Shown here: positions 1 through 31,100 of the stretch, in pieces
Position numbering within the stretch: the stretch's first letter is position 1
How the letters are laid out: the number at the start of each line of letters is the position of its first letter
Origin: Candidatus Parcubacteria bacterium
GTDB lineage: Bacteria > Patescibacteriota > Minisyncoccia > Phycocordibacterales > JAKAEA01
Length of the DNA: 43,469 nucleotides
Assembly (NCBI GenBank): GCA_019661945.1
Contig: JAIFWI010000004.1
Span: 1-43,469 of the forward strand
Direction: 5' to 3'
Program-made: the position numbers and the translations under genes
Notes under the pieces: model-generated
What the model was told of the DNA's origin: nothing
What the model saw: only the letters and a program-made list of their open reading frames with translations
The model's database searches: none

Positions 1-1
1 A

Positions 2-490
2 TTACCGTCCAGAGCGTACAGGACGTGGCGGGTATGGCGGTGGGCTGCCATGCTGCCTGTGCACACTGTTTATGAAGCTGTGTGCAACAAGCGTTAGGTT
101 GAAGTAGTCGTAGATTGCCGCCACAACCACTGCAGTCGCTGACCACTCCAAGAGCATCATGCCGGTGACTGTGTTCTCCACAGTGCCGAACCATGCCTCG
201 CTCATCGAGGTAATCCGCCGGCCGTTCGCCGTGAACTTCTCATGCGTGTCGCTAGCACCCGGCGCCAAGCCGTAGGCCAGGATCCGCCCGAGGGTCTGAG
301 GATTCATCCTCACCACCCTCATAAGCACATCCTGGAACACCTGCTTGGAAAAGGACTGCGGCGAGAAGTGGTTACGAACAGTGTCGAGGGTGATTCTGCA
401 TTCACCCGCGATCTGCTTCGCGATGTTCTCGAGGTACAGCTGGTTCATCTGCTCTTGAGTGCGGACGGATGCCGTTAGTGCAGTTCTCAT
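2..490 (-). CDS. Hypothetical protein
   Basis: ORF track gives 2..547 (GTG). ATG at 490 has a strong SD (GAAAGGAGAAAAA-ATG), so I prefer it. No recognisable domain; Pro-rich C-terminus. Confidence 0.65.
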   Translation of the reverse strand: MRTALTASVRTQEQMNQLYLENIAKQIAGECRITLDTVRNHFSPQSFSKQVFQDVLMRVVRMNPQTLGRILAYGLAPGASDTHEKFTANGRRITSMSEAWFGTVENTVTGMMLLEWSATAVVVAAIYDYFNLTLVAHSFINSVHRQHGSPPPYPPRPVRSGR

Positions 491-606
491 TTTTTCTCCT
501 TTCGGGAGATTCTCGTCACCACTATGGATGTAGATATCGAGAGACACCTACATAAGAATCCGAGATAGATTCTTTGACGACCCGATCGTGCCCAATCGAT
601 GCCAAT

Positions 607-635
607 ATAATATCATACTTCTAACGCAGGGTCAA
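607..635 (-). promoter_or_regulatory. Sigma70-type promoter for the 2..490 gene
   Basis: Minus strand reads TTGACC-17 nt-TATTAT, with TG-n before the -10 box. Confidence 0.55.
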
Positions 636-648
636 GTATTGAGATAGC

Positions 649-678
649 TTTGCTCGCTCTACAGGACGATTTTCGAAC
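649..678 (+). repeat. att-like motif copy A (TTTGCTC-N16-TTCGAAC)
   Basis: TTTGCTCGCTCTACAGGACGATTTTCGAAC. Same anchors and spacing as the copies at 1502 and 2008; resembles the antisense tRNA-Asn 3' end GCTC-N11-TTCGAAC at 3006-3027. Confidence 0.65.
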
Positions 679-746
679 TATTAAATGGGAGGAGGAATGT
701 CCTTTTCCAAGCATTACGTTAAAAGAAATACAGAGTTTATTAAAAT

Positions 747-777
747 AAAAAAAACACCCCAGGGTAAGCCGGGGTGT
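747..777 (-). terminator. Rho-independent terminator after the HExxH gene
   Basis: ACACCCC(754-760)/GGGGTGT(771-777) stem, followed on the minus strand by a T-run. Confidence 0.7.
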
Positions 778-809
778 GAGTGTGCCATGAAATACTGAGT
801 AGCCATCGA

Positions 810-1418
810 TTAAGCCTGGCGGTACATCCGGCGGATTTCTGCAATCCACTCGGGATGATCGGCACTTCGGCCGCAGGCAACCCACTTCTGGTAAAGTTTT
901 ACTTGCGATTCGAGGACGGGTTTGCGGGTTGTCGCAAAGTGCTCAAGTGTGTGTTCGCAGGTTTCGCCATGTGCCAACCGTTCGAACTCAATCATTTTTT
1001 CGTAATCGAGATCCGCCCCAATCCAACCGTTAGCCAGGTGTTCCATTTCGTGCATCATCCCGATTACTACAACCGCCTCAAAAGTAGCATTGATGAGGTG
1101 AGGGTCCTGAGTCAGAGATCGAAGCTTGTTCATCCCTGCCATGAAAGCTTGGATAAACACCGCAACGAGCGGTTTGCCATTTTCGATTTTGCACGCAATA
1201 GGATTGTACTCCACTTGCTTACCTGCCAGCTGGATAGCAGTGTTGTATGGTTGGACCAAGTAGCTCTGACTGTACCGCTGCACGATTCTGTTTGCGTTCA
1301 GGGTGTACCGTTCTTGGACTGGCCTCAAGCTGTACTTACCAGTCATGAGCTGGCTTACGTGGGGTTGAATCTCATTTTCCCAGAATGCAGTTGCCTCTTC
1401 GTGACTTGGCTGTTGCAT
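810..1418 (-). CDS. Hypothetical protein with HExxH zinc-metallopeptidase-like motif
   Basis: HEMEH plus a downstream ExxA (FERLAH), as in gluzincins. GGAG SD, upstream TTGACC-17-TATTAC, downstream terminator. Confidence 0.7.
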   Translation of the reverse strand: MQQPSHEEATAFWENEIQPHVSQLMTGKYSLRPVQERYTLNANRIVQRYSQSYLVQPYNTAIQLAGKQVEYNPIACKIENGKPLVAVFIQAFMAGMNKLRSLTQDPHLINATFEAVVVIGMMHEMEHLANGWIGADLDYEKMIEFERLAHGETCEHTLEHFATTRKPVLESQVKLYQKWVACGRSADHPEWIAEIRRMYRQA

Positions 1419-1501
1419 TAATGTGCTCCGGTATGAAGATCGTATTCAATGTAAAAGGACGCCATTACTGTAATAACATGATCAGATAGATAGGTCAAAT
1501 A

Positions 1502-1531
1502 TTTGCTCCAAGGGTTGGGAGCTGTTCGAAC
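1502..1531 (+). repeat. att-like motif copy B
   Basis: TTTGCTCCAAGGGTTGGGAGCTGTTCGAAC. Anchors and N16 spacing are conserved; the interior has diverged. Confidence 0.55.
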
Positions 1532-1538
1532 GTATCTT

Positions 1539-1961
1539 TTATATGGAAAATTCAATTATCCACTCAATGCCATATTTATCTCTAAACATGCCCGCATATG
1601 TTCCCCAAGGACTATCCCCCATTGGTCCTTCTACTTTTCCTCCAGCTGAAAGGCCACTAAATAATTTGTCTGCTTCTTCTTTGCTTTCGGTGTTTATTAT
1701 AATCTTACTTCTGTTTTCATTCTCATTTACTTTTCCCATTATTTCTGGAACATCATTTGCCATTAACATATTATTTTTACCGATGGGCAAAGTAATAAGC
1801 ATTATTTTATTTTCCTCGTTTTTTGCCACCGGGAATTCAGTACTTGCGATATCCTTGAAACGTATCACTTTTGCGAACTCTCCGCCGAATACTGATTTGT
1901 AAAAAGTAAAAGCTTCTTCAGCATTACCATTAAAGTTAATCCAAGGATTTATTGTTGCCAT
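1539..1961 (-). CDS. VOC family protein (PhnB/YjdN-like)
   Basis: INPWINFNGNAEEAFTFYKSVFGG at the N-terminus; WG..AGMFRDKYGIEWII at the C-terminus. Confidence 0.9.
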   Translation of the reverse strand: MATINPWINFNGNAEEAFTFYKSVFGGEFAKVIRFKDIASTEFPVAKNEENKIMLITLPIGKNNMLMANDVPEIMGKVNENENRSKIIINTESKEEADKLFSGLSAGGKVEGPMGDSPWGTYAGMFRDKYGIEWIIEFSI

Positions 1962-2007
1962 ACTTCAATGATATCAAATTAAATTAATTTGATGAAGCGT
2001 TTTTTAT

Positions 2008-2037
2008 TTTGCTCGCCCTGGTGGATGATTTTCGAAT
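2008..2037 (+). repeat. att-like motif copy C
   Basis: TTTGCTCGCCCTGGTGGATGATTTTCGAAT, close to copy A (shared GCyCT...GGAyGATTTTCGAA). Confidence 0.65.
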
Positions 2038-2072
2038 TTTTTTAATACGGAAAGAGTAATGGTGCCTGTTAT

Positions 2073-2978
2073 CTACTGGTCATTAAAGCAATTTTCAACT
2101 AGATCTACTGCTGTTTCATATACATGGATTTTTTCTGTCGCCATGGCATACCTTTTGCTGAGGAAATTTACAACAGACCCTATTCTTTCGGGGTTATGAA
2201 CGGTGACATAAATTTCTGAAATTGGGTTCCGAATAGTCAGGTTATTTAGGTTTACTTCTAAGCCGGCGCCGAGACCTATGATATATAGCTGTATAGCTGC
2301 AGTAATGTCATGTGTACTAAAAGTATGACTATGGCTTTCATGGCATGACACTGCATCTATATATTCACCACTATTTGTTTTATGAGTTTCCTGAACTCTG
2401 AATATGTGAGCCGAGTTTGTTTCCAGTTCGCGGTACAAACTGCCATGTGGGTATAGTGCATTTACTATCACATCTGATAACTGACTCAATCTACCGCGAC
2501 GAATTGAAAGACGGTCTTTTTGTGGTAAAAAACTAAAGTCGAGGAAATTATCCTCCAAAACGCGGTCATAGTTATAATTCACAAAAGCAATTTTTCCGTC
2601 GAGGTTTGGCTTAGTAAGAATTTTAACATTCAGTCGCTCCAACCATCCATTTTCGGGAGCTCGATACTTTTCCTCAAAAATATCCCGCATTACTTGGAAT
2701 ATGTCGTTCTCAATATCAAGACCGGTTGAGTGATACTTTTTTGCGCGAGATTCAATGCTTATACAAACATCGATTGTCGGATGGTCCTTACCACTTCCAA
2801 CTTTTTCCACCCACTCCGAGATGGCCTCTTTGTGTTTATAACGATTCACTGTATCGCGCTTCATATGCTCAAGAATTAAATCCTGTAGTTCATCCCAAAC
2901 TGGCAGGCCGTAGTCTACAGATGCTCCAGCTCCAAGAATGACAAGTCGTTTTACATTACTATTGGGGCGAAAATGCAT
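2073..2978 (-). CDS. SIR2-like (SIR2_2-type) NAD-binding domain protein, candidate defence effector
   Basis: LVILGAGAS..YGLP.W, FVNYNYDRVLE, YPHGS and YIIGLG match the motif series of bacterial sirtuin-like domains. Confidence 0.8.
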   Translation of the reverse strand: MHFRPNSNVKRLVILGAGASVDYGLPVWDELQDLILEHMKRDTVNRYKHKEAISEWVEKVGSGKDHPTIDVCISIESRAKKYHSTGLDIENDIFQVMRDIFEEKYRAPENGWLERLNVKILTKPNLDGKIAFVNYNYDRVLEDNFLDFSFLPQKDRLSIRRGRLSQLSDVIVNALYPHGSLYRELETNSAHIFRVQETHKTNSGEYIDAVSCHESHSHTFSTHDITAAIQLYIIGLGAGLEVNLNNLTIRNPISEIYVTVHNPERIGSVVNFLSKRYAMATEKIHVYETAVDLVENCFNDQ

Positions 2979-3006
2979 TGAATGTCATTATTAAAAAACT
3001 CTAGGG

Positions 3007-3078
3007 CTCCCCCGGCAGGATTCGAACCTGCGACCAATCGCTTAACAGGCGACTGCTCTACCGCTGAGCTACAGGGGA
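3007..3078 (-). tRNA. tRNA-Asn(GTT)
   Basis: TCCCCTGTAGCTCAGCGGTAGAGCAGTCGCCTGTTAAGCGATTGGTCGCAGGTTCGAATCCTGCCGGGGGAG folds as a cloverleaf with anticodon GTT. It is followed by CCC, so CCA is not encoded. Confidence 0.97.
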
Positions 3079-3156
3079 ATGTAAGAAAATAATATCAGAA
3101 TTTGCTGAATTGTAAACGCCGTGGTTGAGGTGAGCATACCTTGCTATACTAATAAT

Positions 3157-3321
3157 ATGAGTTCGAAATCGTTGATCTGGCTTTGTATGGTCATTGGTTC
3201 CACTATCGGCGGAGCTATTCCAAATCTATGGGGCGCGACTTTCCTATCAATGTCCTCTGTCTTTCTAACTGCCCTTGGCGGTATTGTCGGCATCTGGATT
3301 GGTTTTAATCTCAGCAGGTAA
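3157..3321 (+). CDS. Small membrane protein (two predicted TM helices)
   Basis: Hydrophobic, Gly-rich 54 aa from ATG 3157, which lies 6 nt after TGC-TATACT. The track start 3121 is a GTG. Confidence 0.7.
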   Translation: MSSKSLIWLCMVIGSTIGGAIPNLWGATFLSMSSVFLTALGGIVGIWIGFNLSR

Positions 3322-3433
3322 AATACTCTGCCGCTTTTTTATTCGACAATCTTATACATTCTAGTTATAGTACCTCCAGAGCTGTCTATTGTGGACAGCG
3401 TTTTTTGAGAAATTTTTTAGAGAGGAATAGACC

Positions 3434-28106: not shown

Positions 28107-31100
28107 CTACTCGGAAACTGTAGCTGCCGGCACATCAGTAATTTCTACGACTGGTTCGGTAGGTTGTACTTCAGGTTCAGTTGCTTCATTGTCGACTTCT
28201 TCTACTGGAAGCTCCTCTTTGGCCGGCTCTTCTGTAATTTCTTCTTTAGGCTCTTCCTTCGGCTCTTCAGCAGGAGGTTTTTCTTCGACTACCGGCTGTT
28301 CGACTGGAGGCGGTGGAGGCACTACCACTGCTTCAGTTGAGGTACTTGTTTTTGCACCCTTCACGGCAAGCGCTATCCAGCTAAAGGTAATATCTTCAGG
28401 GGCTGCTTTATTCAGGGTAATCCTGAAACCATGAGTAGTCTTCTTAGAAATGAGGTGCCGAATATCATTGCCAAAGAGCGCATCTTCGAGAGCCTCATCA
28501 GTACTTGAAGCATTTTCTAGAGAAATAGAAGCATTGATAATTGGCTGCTCAAGATATTCTCGTCCAAAGGTGACATCAGCGAATTTCGCTCCCTTTTTAA
28601 TCAGAGCAAACCCAGCTGTATCAGTGGTAAAGTATGGCCGGCCGATGAAGATAAGATCTGATTGAAATGCGAGCATTTCGCCTCCGGTACCAATGCTATC
28701 TACTTCGAGACCATCCCAGATCGTAGCTCGGTTTATAGTCAAAGCTTTTCCTATTGGAGTTGAACTAGCAATTTGGGTCTCAAGCGCTGCAAGACTCGAC
28801 GCCAGATTTACATAGTGCTCTGAAGATGAAGCAAGTAATGCTTTTGTTTCATTAACAAATCCAAAGACTGAAGCAAGCTGGGCACTAACACTCATAGAGC
28901 TCGATGCAGTACTTGTAGCCAAGCTTTCCAATCTATCGGTCAGAGAGGAAATTGAATCTGTAAATATTTCAAGACCCTCTATTTGCTTAGCTACAACTTT
29001 ATTTGCGGTGACCGTGCCAGCAAAGACAGCATTACCATCTGCATCGAAGGTAATAACCGGTGTGCTTGATGCAGAAGCATCTTTAAATGTAGCTGACATG
29101 TCTTCCTTACCAGCCTTAGTTATAATCATCTTGCCACCTTGGGCAAGTTTTAGTTTTATATCATCTTCAACTGCTTCAATAGTATTTACTACCAATGTAT
29201 CAGTCAAAACTCTTGGTGTAATCAATTCAAGTCCGGCGACGACTCTGTCGGTAAAGACTTCAGAAATTGAACTTGAAGCTGTAATATTCTTTTTCTCAAC
29301 CATGAGCTGTGCAAGCATTATTCGGCCAATGTCTAAGCCTGCAGGTATATTATCGCTATCGATACCAGCTCGTTCCAAAAGAACATTCGTTCTAGCACCA
29401 CTTGAATATTGAGTTTGAACAAACATCATTACTTTTCCAGTTGAAGTAGCACCATCTGCTGGAGAAATATAATCTTCAAGAGCCGCACCAATAATTATGC
29501 CCGACTTCTCCATTTTAGCCGCTACGCCTGGAATAGAAGATGGACCAAGTAAATCTCCGGCTTTAATAGGACCGTTTTCCAAAGATACTTTCACTGGTGT
29601 TCGTCCAGCCAAGGCAATAGGTTGTGGATTTTTAGCATCCACACTTTCGCTAATCTTTCTACCCATAGTTATAGCCGGAGCAGTTGAGACAACACCAACC
29701 ACCTTGCTGTCAGGTCCAGCTTTCTCGAGTATTGAAATTTTTTGTAATCCCCATTCTGAGTCGTAATTAAATGAATCTTTACTGATTGAAACAATATCAC
29801 CAACTTCTACATCCTCTTTTGTTTCATACATTTCGGCAAGGTCAGATCCGTTTGTTCCCGAAAGTTCCCAGACGAGGACCATACCTCGAGCACCGGCCGA
29901 AGCAGCACCAGCAGATTCAGATCCACCACCACCTCCACCACCTGGAATTGCACCTGCTTGTCCAGCAGCACCAGTACCTCCAGTAGCAACTGCAGTACCT
30001 CCCATACCTCCCGCGCCTCCAAATGGTGCTCCACCACCATTACCTCCAGCAGCACCGTCGCCAGCTGCGGCACCAAGCGTGCTTCCTCCAGCTTGACCAG
30101 GAACAGTTATCGTACCACCAGAAGCTGTACCACCAGCACCACCAGTGGTACCGGAGTTTGTCTGGCCTGCACCACCGGTAAGAGTACCACCGCTCGCAGC
30201 AAAGCTTGAGGCATTTCCGTTAGCGCCGACAGTTGATGTTGCACCAATAGTCACAGTTACGTTTGCATTGACTGCCACTACTCCAGCGGCGTAACCACCA
30301 CCTCCACCACCTCCGTCAGAGTTGTTTGCGCCTGCAACACCTCCACCACCACCTCCTCCCCAAACTTCAACATAGACGTTATTAACGAAGGCTGGCTTTG
30401 TCCATGTACCGTTGACTGTATGAACTCGGACTGCTTCGACACCGAATCCAGCATCACCACTGCCACCCCCGCTAATACAAGTACCATTAACAGCATAACA
30501 GCCAGTTGTAATATTAAAGCCGACATCTGAGGTTGAAGTAGCTGAAGCATCAATATTCAAACCAGAGAGGGTCGTTGTACCGAAACCATTTCCGGCAACA
30601 GACAGGAATTTGACAGCATTTGAGGAACTGGCAACTTCAAAGACGGGGTTGGTCTGGAGAAGGTTACCTTGAACTGACAGTTTGGCATATGGACTTGTTG
30701 TGCCGATACCTACATTGTTCGCATTGGCTGTTGTTGTACCAATAACGATTGTTGTTGTTCCAGAAACGGCAGTGCCGTTTGCTCCGTAAAATGCAAGTTG
30801 TCCGAATACGCCAGTATTAACAGTACCTGATCCTCCTGAGCCACCAATACAAGTATTGCTAATAGCGTAACATCCTCCAGTAATATTCAAACCAACGTTT
30901 GAGGTTGAGGTTGCTGAACCGGAAATAGTTAAACCTGAAAGGGTTGTCGTGCCAAAACCTGTGGCAGAAACTGACAAAGCCGTAGTTGATGCTGAGGTAA
31001 CAACATTAAAAATAGAACCTGTTAATCCGCCCCATACAGTCAATTTTGATGTAGGTGAGCTCGTACCGATTGCAATACCGCTATTTTGAATACCACCTGA

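Follow-up and report, generated by a model that had tools for sequence, protein, structure and literature searches.

The 43,469-nucleotide window analysed here comprises the entire contig C22 of a Candidatus Parcubacteria genome assembly (G000; 41 contigs, 860,826 bases; G- and C-numbers denote genomes and contigs in the following) and carries, downstream of its tRNA-Asn gene, three direct copies of the motif TTTGCTC-N16-TTCGAA that alternate with single genes. With a probability of roughly 0.78, these copies are element-side P-type half-sites (attR- or attP-like junctions) of large serine recombinase (LSR) elements that were serially inserted at tRNA-Asn. The window most likely represents a small stack of captured accessory genes, i.e., an orphan array, since no cognate LSR was found in the assembly.

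The three copies, already described in a reading made from the letters of the window alone (the sequence-only reading), are exact at 649-677, 1502-1530 and 2008-2036, all on the plus strand (TTCGAA-N16-GAGCAAA if read on the minus strand). According to 100 shuffles of the window, 0.09 matches are expected, and none of the shuffles contained four; the sole further match in the window, at 30778, carries one mismatch. The whole assembly harbours the exact pattern three times, all in this region of the window, and the weaker pattern GCTC-N16-TTCGAA seven times, i.e., the three window copies and four sites elsewhere. The 3' end of tRNA-Asn contains the same elements at shorter distance: on the minus strand, the T-loop TTCGAA (3026-3021) is followed by 11 nt and GAGC (3009-3006), corresponding to GCTC-N11-TTCGAA in antisense. 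Both the antisense tRNA end and copy A contain CAGGA, and the 5-nt offset between tRNA and motif that had been claimed from the letters alone is present in the sequence. The features concerned are as follows.

3004-3079, minus strand: tRNA-Asn(GTT), recognized by ARAGORN and from the sequence; proposed attB, its 3' end read as a B-type half-site
2008-2036, minus strand: site C, putative P-type arm TTCGAA-N16-GAGCAAA at the distal end of cassette 1
1502-1530, minus strand: site B, putative P-type arm 8 nt past the stop codon of the VOC gene, followed by TTGACC-N17-TATTAC
649-742, minus strand: site A, putative P-type arm (649-677) together with a conserved element end of about 65 bp on the tRNA-proximal side

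The motif is linked to tRNA-Asn also in related genomes. Across 60 relatives, the exact pattern matches in five genomes, none of which matches the reversed control, and three of the five matches are located 3' of tRNA-Asn. Comparison of 20 tRNA-Asn loci (207 kb downstream and 98 kb upstream in total) revealed 13 direct downstream copies of TTCGAA-N16-GAGC (tRNA strand) versus 0-3 for each other spacing from 8 to 24, and 0-1 for the N16 motif in upstream or inverted position. A relaxed pattern yields 26 sites in 11 of the 20 genomes versus 0-2 per control class. Enrichment, which the sequence-only reading had proposed as a check, is indeed confined to the direct N16 motif downstream of tRNA-Asn. 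The second proposed check, on gene content, points in the same direction: the gene block upstream of tRNA-Asn is conserved, the genes downstream are almost all genome-specific, and DNA similarity between species breaks off precisely where the tRNA ends (3'), also for two members of the same genus (G008, G011). Pairs of an empty and an occupied site were not found among 10 genome pairs; similarity just stops at the tRNA. Taken together with the LSR genes of relatives described below, these results fit the earlier proposal of junctions left by serial integration at the tRNA, or of sites used by a recombinase acting in trans. As a separate feature of these loci, tRNA-Asn contains inserts of about 250-570 nt past position 35 in G010, G049, G037, G014, G054, G052, G155, G301 and G083; ARAGORN calls them introns, and similar inserts are present there in Asp, Arg, Thr and Pro tRNAs.

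The candidate enzyme is encoded directly at the tRNA in relatives. Open reading frames (ORFs) on the opposite strand, of 553 aa in G043 and 537 aa in G012, terminate inside the T-stem of tRNA-Asn. The G043 protein contains Resolvase, Recombinase and Zn_ribbon_recom domains, all above cut-off, and matches the structure of the A118 integrase (chain 4KIS, E 1.9e-7). Homologues of this LSR are encoded in 245 of 401 genomes of the order (E ≤ 1e-20), and in 26 of the 30 best loci the C-terminus of the LSR faces a convergent tRNA (no tRNA in the other four). The target is tRNA-Asn for LSRs of at least 55 % identity, and tRNA-Gln, -Ser, -Asp, -His, -Lys, -Trp, -Ala or -Pro for others. An LSR gene at the element junction, as expected for sites of this enzyme class, is accordingly found in relatives (G043; the 26 loci above), and, for this LSR family, neither in the window nor elsewhere in the G000 assembly. 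The cargo of the G043 element (contig C1, +1.6 to +7.6 kb) comprises HTH_36, a BstXI-type restriction enzyme with an N6/N4 methyltransferase, an S24 LexA-like repressor and DUF3892, and is a small defence island rather than a prophage.

The far ends of these elements carry the same type of arm as the window. For 18 LSR loci, up to 20 kb on the element side were taken; in 11 of them, the pattern TTC[TG]AA-N16-[own tRNA positions 71-74] with the interior ..ATCRTCCAC.. is located 7.9-12.3 kb from the tRNA (Gln 1, Ser 2, Asp 3, His 4 and Trp 1 loci). In the spacing control, direct N16 accounted for 12 sites, and each of the other spacings between 10 and 22, like the inverted orientation, for 0-1. 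A variant arm is present in G338 (Ala) in three identical copies, and G043 (Asn) has an N15 arm copy at +7701 that is near-identical to site A of the window. The far-end arms are typically followed by a terminator hairpin. Related elements (G027 vs. G286 and G197; G361 vs. G342) have in common the LSR end and a stretch of about 70-165 bp terminating at the arm, the cargo in between being unrelated. Judged by these alignments, the arm is therefore the right end of the LSR element. The arm interior is common to elements of different tRNAs and is therefore not a decayed tRNA fragment; the sequence-only reading, which had described copy A as differing from the tRNA end by a 5-nt insertion, has to be revised in favour of an element-borne arm. 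With regard to a second half-site across the crossover (imperfect dyad symmetry), inspection of the LSR-side flanks by eye shows T/G-GAC in common at about 6-10 nt outward, and GC(G/A)AAA at about 19-25 nt. A different site type, TTCGAA-N8/9-GAGCAT preceded by ..TTCGTC.., occurs on contig C2 of G384 at +7850, +10567 and +19368 from tRNA-Asn, forming a stack past an LSR with 55 % identity to that of G043.

The spacing rule extends over six tRNA species (Asn, Asp, Ser, Trp, His and Gln), with N11 in the tRNA and N16 in the arm, the distal motif being 5 bp further out in the attP-type site. The core common to arm and tRNA end is short (4-6 nt), and homology ends at the assumed crossover, since alignments stop at GAGCA or the arm. 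A similar geometry is known from the A118 LI integrase, for which the motif of the zinc-ribbon domain (ZD) is placed 5 bp nearer to the central dinucleotide in attB (bp 11-19) than in attP (bp 16-24), as stated in the consulted part of Rutherford et al. (2013; PMC3783163). As in that excerpt, the distal motif here lies 5 bp closer to the presumed crossover in the attB-type (N11) than in the attP-type (N16) site. If the centre is assumed at tRNA positions 73-74, TTCGAA falls at positions of about 14-19 (tRNA) and about 19-24 (arm), and may by analogy be the sequence read by the ZD. Unlike in A118 LI, the attB half-site here would extend from the tRNA T-loop to the 3' end, and the motif is assigned by analogy.

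From this geometry, the following course of events is proposed. Elements of one LSR family would insert immediately 3' of a tRNA gene, with a crossover presumably at or next to tRNA positions 73-74 (between GAG and C). The tRNA would stay intact and act as the B half-site, with the T-loop TTCGAA 11 nt from GAGC, and the element arm would present TTC[GT]AA at a distance of 16 nt from these four bases. With each insertion, older material would be displaced outward, giving rise to P arms in direct repeat, each closing the DNA between itself and the tRNA; in the window, three arms would close three single-gene units (SIR2-like, VOC and HExxH). A crossover at the extreme end of the tRNA would explain why the tRNA is unbroken beside intact LSR genes, why tRNA and arm share only 4-6 nt, and why A-type arms diverge right past GAGCA. 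A crossover inside the T-loop was also considered and rejected, as the tRNA beside an intact LSR keeps its N11 3' end with the LSR ORF ending inside it, and as such a crossover with an N16 arm would destroy the tRNA.

The three arms of the window belong to three subtypes, each of which is found in other genomes, suggesting on the level of sequence three separate insertions. The inner part of site C (AATCATCCACCAG) is similar to the arm consensus at the far end of LSR elements. The subtype of site B (..CCCTTGGAGC) also occurs downstream of tRNA-Asn in G008, G009 and the unpublished genome G002. Site A displays about 80 % identity over 86-92 bp to one metagenome contig, the only one retrieved in a metagenome scan for this arm type, and to G002. 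In a 5-row alignment of site A that includes the LSR element end of G043, similarity stops at GAGCA; the A-type arms (G000, G043, G002 and the metagenome contig) can be aligned on the element side over about 90 bp, divergence setting in directly past this point. The motif ends TTCGAA and GAGCAAA are by eye not mutual inverted repeats. A reading of the 16-nt interior as RNA hairpin or tRNA-like structure was dismissed, as the stem positions, judged by eye, differ between copies.

The units closed by these arms contain one minus-strand ORF each, and a fourth ORF lies beyond copy A. One minus-strand gene per interval, and one before the tRNA, had been reported from the letters alone, and the ORFs agree.

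2073-2978, minus strand: gene of cassette 1, ORF of 301 aa with a weak SIR2-like N-terminus, beginning 25 nt past the tRNA 3' end
1539-1961, minus strand: gene of cassette 2, 140-aa protein of the VOC/glyoxalase family (PF00903, E 2.2e-10)
810-1418, minus strand: gene of cassette 3, 202-aa protein with HEMEH (HExxH), putative zinc metallopeptidase
754-777, minus strand: terminator-like hairpin and T-run 3' of the HExxH gene
2-547, minus strand: ORF beyond site A, 181 aa (GTG start) or 162 aa (ATG start at 490)

The resulting layout is compact: the tRNA, 25 nt, the SIR2-like gene, 36 nt and site C in unit 1; site C, 47 nt, the VOC gene, 8 nt and site B in unit 2; and site B, 84 nt, the HExxH gene, the terminator and site A in unit 3. 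The gene labels assigned from the letters are borne out to different degrees. VOC membership is confirmed by PF00903. The 202-aa protein contains the HExxH motif and has no Pfam match; its assignment in a protein atlas (0.90-0.91 to clusters automatically named zinc metallopeptidase) serves as a lead only. For the 301-aa protein, the sole support for SIR2 is a weak match of residues 11-142 to a PADLOC model (E 2.4e-7), with no sequence match in Pfam, NCBIfam or the PDB. The product of the 2-547 ORF belongs to no family in Pfam, NCBIfam, PADLOC or PHROGs, and its atlas model is poor; a sigma-70-like promoter precedes it at 635-607. The VOC protein is 73 % identical on the amino acid level to products of genes located elsewhere in the tRNA-Asn islands of G007 and G004, the gene flanks in the three genomes being too diverged for placing breakpoints. 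Counting G000, 8 of 401 genomes were found to encode homologues of the HExxH protein; the genes lie neither beside an arm nor, except for one tRNA-Ile in view, beside a tRNA. A paralogue with 35 % identity is encoded in G000 at C3:19205-19753 (minus strand), near the end of this contig.

The island probably continues beyond the window. Window positions 1-81 are identical to the last 81 nt of contig C2 (C2:21933-22013), forming a contig-end overlap. Joined with C2, the island would probably reach about 21 kb, continuing through small SRPBCC, GNAT, TPR and peptidase genes; no further arms were found in the 21.8 kb of remaining island. It probably ends at the gene block C2:6-3644, which is located upstream of tRNA-Asn in most relatives. 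In G000, tRNA-Asn and its island appear to be inverted, as in G005 and G020. In the first island unit of G006, a 302-aa ORF with a reverse-transcriptase-like YCDD motif is located on contig C2 of that genome at +392..+1300 from tRNA-Asn, and in G003 a 1020-aa ORF with an NPPY methyltransferase motif occupies the same position.

Stacks of arms and element remnants are widespread. In G006, an arm lies directly against an N-terminally truncated LSR remnant and is accompanied by three further arms; in G004, the sequence after one arm is a copy of the LSR-side flank; and G002 displays both a truncated LSR remnant at the arm and a copy of the LSR-side flank. Five near-identical arms are present within 6.3 kb in G047 and six identical ones in G302, and extra arms are located 0.6-1.5 kb past the end of an intact LSR element in G197, G338 and G285. 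A stricter, Asn-biased pattern applied to the order yielded about 207 matches in 126 of 401 genomes versus about 35 for the reversed control, many of the arrays having inter-site distances of 280-1800 bp. Searching 185,579 species genomes with the Asp-type arm consensus retrieved 69 stretches (about 17 expected by chance), of which 51 are labelled as Patescibacteria groups, 9 merely as "bacterium" and 9 as other phyla. Among 40 Asp-type sites with a same-strand upstream tRNA in an 8-kb locus, 28 match positions 71-74 of this tRNA; 21 of these 28 are less than 1.6 kb from the tRNA and thereby too near for an LSR gene in between, though loci of 8 kb bias towards short distances.

Arms without a neighbouring LSR occur also elsewhere in G000. 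TTCCAA-N16-CAGC is located 3' of both tRNA-Gln genes (C36:33948-33973, plus strand; C39:1870-1895, minus strand), 0.4 and 0.9 kb from the respective tRNA, each closing one or two small genes with no LSR nearby. The absence of an integrase gene noted from the letters holds for the window contig, which has neither PF00589 nor PF00239 matches; in the whole assembly, PF00589 is matched on contig C7 only, by the single tyrosine recombinase of G000, and PF00239 on contig C1 only. The latter represents the sole LSR of G000 (C1:13117-14745, minus strand, 542 aa), encoded directly beside a ychF-like GTPase gene. As cognate enzyme it was rejected, because it has no BLAST similarity to the island LSRs. 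The GCTC-N16-TTCGAA match just upstream of this gene lies within an ORF end and looks like chance.

Granting that the arms are LSR sites, the single-gene units could still be deletion remnants of 8-12 kb elements, i.e., inert scars devoid of cassette mobility. The LSR remnants within the arrays of G006, G002 and G004 agree with such decay, as do the small genes without arms in distal island parts, the failure to find an LSR of this family in G000 and the position of HExxH homologues away from arms. However, compact units start at the crossover of the previous arm (the VOC gene begins 47 nt after site C, and site B 8 nt after the VOC stop), identical arms are frequent in one and the same array (five in G047, six in G302, three in G338), and arm subtypes are at least 95 % conserved between families while the cargo differs. 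Plain deletion leaving mere scars is regarded as less likely than not, but as an alternative to be taken seriously. On account of the unit starts at the previous crossover and the frequent identity of arms in one array, the units most likely arose from site-specific events: an LSR element may have been excised with the nearer P arm as attR, leaving its distal cargo behind, or the LSR module may have been lost site-specifically.

It is very improbable that the motif instead represents a transcriptional control site (operator, activator box, or promoter of an alternative sigma factor with elements 16 nt apart) for the following minus-strand gene. Each gene is indeed preceded by one copy, and hexamers resembling TTGACN-N16/17-TATAAT follow 2-13 nt after sites A and B as well as after copies in G006, G043 and G003. 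Such promoter-like sites are, however, as frequent in positions 1-3400 as in shuffled sequence (7 vs. 6.5), neither promoter nor terminator scans exceeding the shuffles, and the distance from motif to start codon varies (47, 84 and at least 102 nt). Moreover, far-end arms of LSR elements are followed by terminator hairpins rather than promoters, the last four bases of the arm vary with the neighbouring tRNA species, and the arm is confined to the 3' side of tRNAs. Even less credit is given to a classical tyrosine-integrase origin, in which islands would have left the copies behind as displaced and decayed fragments duplicated from the 3' end of tRNA-Asn: tyrosine integrases usually target tRNA 3' ends (PMC4383910, consulted in part) and TTCGAA and GAGC are common to copies and tRNA, but identity to the tRNA is restricted to 4-6 nt plus TTCGAA at different spacing, the 16-nt interior is conserved among copies and elements of other tRNAs without being tRNA-like, and the single tyrosine recombinase of G000 is encoded on another contig, with none of 15 PF00589 matches falling within the arrays of five array-bearing genomes.

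Several observations weigh against serial LSR insertion at tRNA-Asn. Firstly, no LSR of the tRNA-linked family was found in the G000 assembly, and the right flanks of the three window copies display no common arm by eye. LSRs are directional, and a site that is already occupied (attL) is not readily used for further integration; repeated integration beside such a site may require a permissive right half-site. In 5 of the 18 LSR loci (G155, G301, G384, and the short G258 and G049), no convincing arm was found. The inner-consensus score used in the relaxed tRNA-Asn scan and in the far-end scans was derived from the instances themselves, the contrast in spacing and orientation being sounder, and the assignment of TTCGAA to the ZD rests on one solved integrase. 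G048 (contig C10) does not conform to the proposed arrangement: two identical inverted arms flank one 195-aa gene in a region of 641-707 nt beside tRNA-Asn, the inner one, 24 nt from the tRNA, forming a 36-bp near-palindrome with the tRNA end. Finally, no joints appeared in two soil metagenome runs, which contain only 0.06-0.07 of the sampled words; a few 151-nt contigs from these runs are identical to parts of the SIR2-like gene.

The organization resembles integrons, including clusters of attC sites without integrase (CALINs), in which ordered, mostly single-gene units are each closed by a conserved recombination site, often without a recombinase. The array shares with them the ordered stacks of mostly single genes and cargo of the VOC, GNAT and SRPBCC type, and to this extent the term "integron-like" of the sequence-only reading holds, as an analogy only. 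The array is no integron proper, because there is no IntI tyrosine recombinase and no attC-type imperfect palindrome is apparent by eye; furthermore, the anchor is a tRNA rather than attI, and the cassettes seem to carry their own promoters. Unlike an Islander-type tyrosine-integrase island, the locus contains no displaced tRNA 3' fragment, merely TTCGAA and GAGC matching at different spacing.

The closest known system, going by the consulted parts of McMurdie et al. (2011; PMC3146451), are the ssrA islands of Dehalococcoides. In these excerpts, a serine recombinase of about 540 aa is likewise encoded on the reverse strand by attL at the 3' end of a tRNA-like gene, and tandem islands are bounded by direct repeats, many of them lacking an integration module; islands of the latter type are discussed there as cis-mobilizable elements and in terms of accretion. 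The ssrA islands target the tmRNA, their repeat being a 20-bp copy of its 3' end (same source and extent). In contrast, at least nine tRNA species are targeted in the system described here, only 4-6 nt are identical to the target, an element arm offset by 5 bp forms the repeat, and units can be as small as single genes of 0.3-1.8 kb. Prochlorococcus tycheposons, a functional analogue like integrons and CALINs, share the anchoring of hypervariable islands at tRNAs, degenerate remnants and repeated att copies, according to the part of Hackl et al. (bioRxiv 10.1101/2020.12.28.424599) taken into account. There, 910 of 937 elements use tyrosine recombinases with partial-tRNA repeats, a minority uses a large serine recombinase, and new elements push older ones inward; an offset arm and single-gene stacks are not described for tycheposons in this part of the preprint.

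Descriptions of tRNA-targeting LSR cassette arrays in Patescibacteria or the Candidate Phyla Radiation were not found at the level of titles and abstract beginnings, with incomplete coverage of the literature. Of particular interest are the proposed use of the tRNA T-loop and 3' end as attB of a serine integrase, the 5-bp offset across tRNA species, and the wide occurrence of orphan stacks in Patescibacteria. The arrays suggest that orphan att-site arrays exist for serine recombinases as well, analogous to the CALINs of integrons. As a natural series of LSRs in which the target tRNA varies and the arm is conserved, they could serve to test the discrimination of attB and attP (5-bp offset, T-loop recognition).

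For the organisms themselves, LSR insertion next to tRNA genes provides a concrete mechanism for the formation of a hypervariable region in very small genomes, and possibly for the sampling of accessory and defence genes. One may speculate, tentatively and with more doubt than confidence, that Patescibacteria possess a phylum-wide LSR-based gene-capture system, in which each LSR clade takes the universal T-loop and the last bases of one tRNA as attB, in which any one of several P arms downstream may act as attR, and in which single-gene cassettes are thereby deposited, stacked, picked up and exchanged. If true, such a system would represent the serine-recombinase counterpart of the integron, and these minimal genomes would obtain their accessory and defence genes mainly through it.

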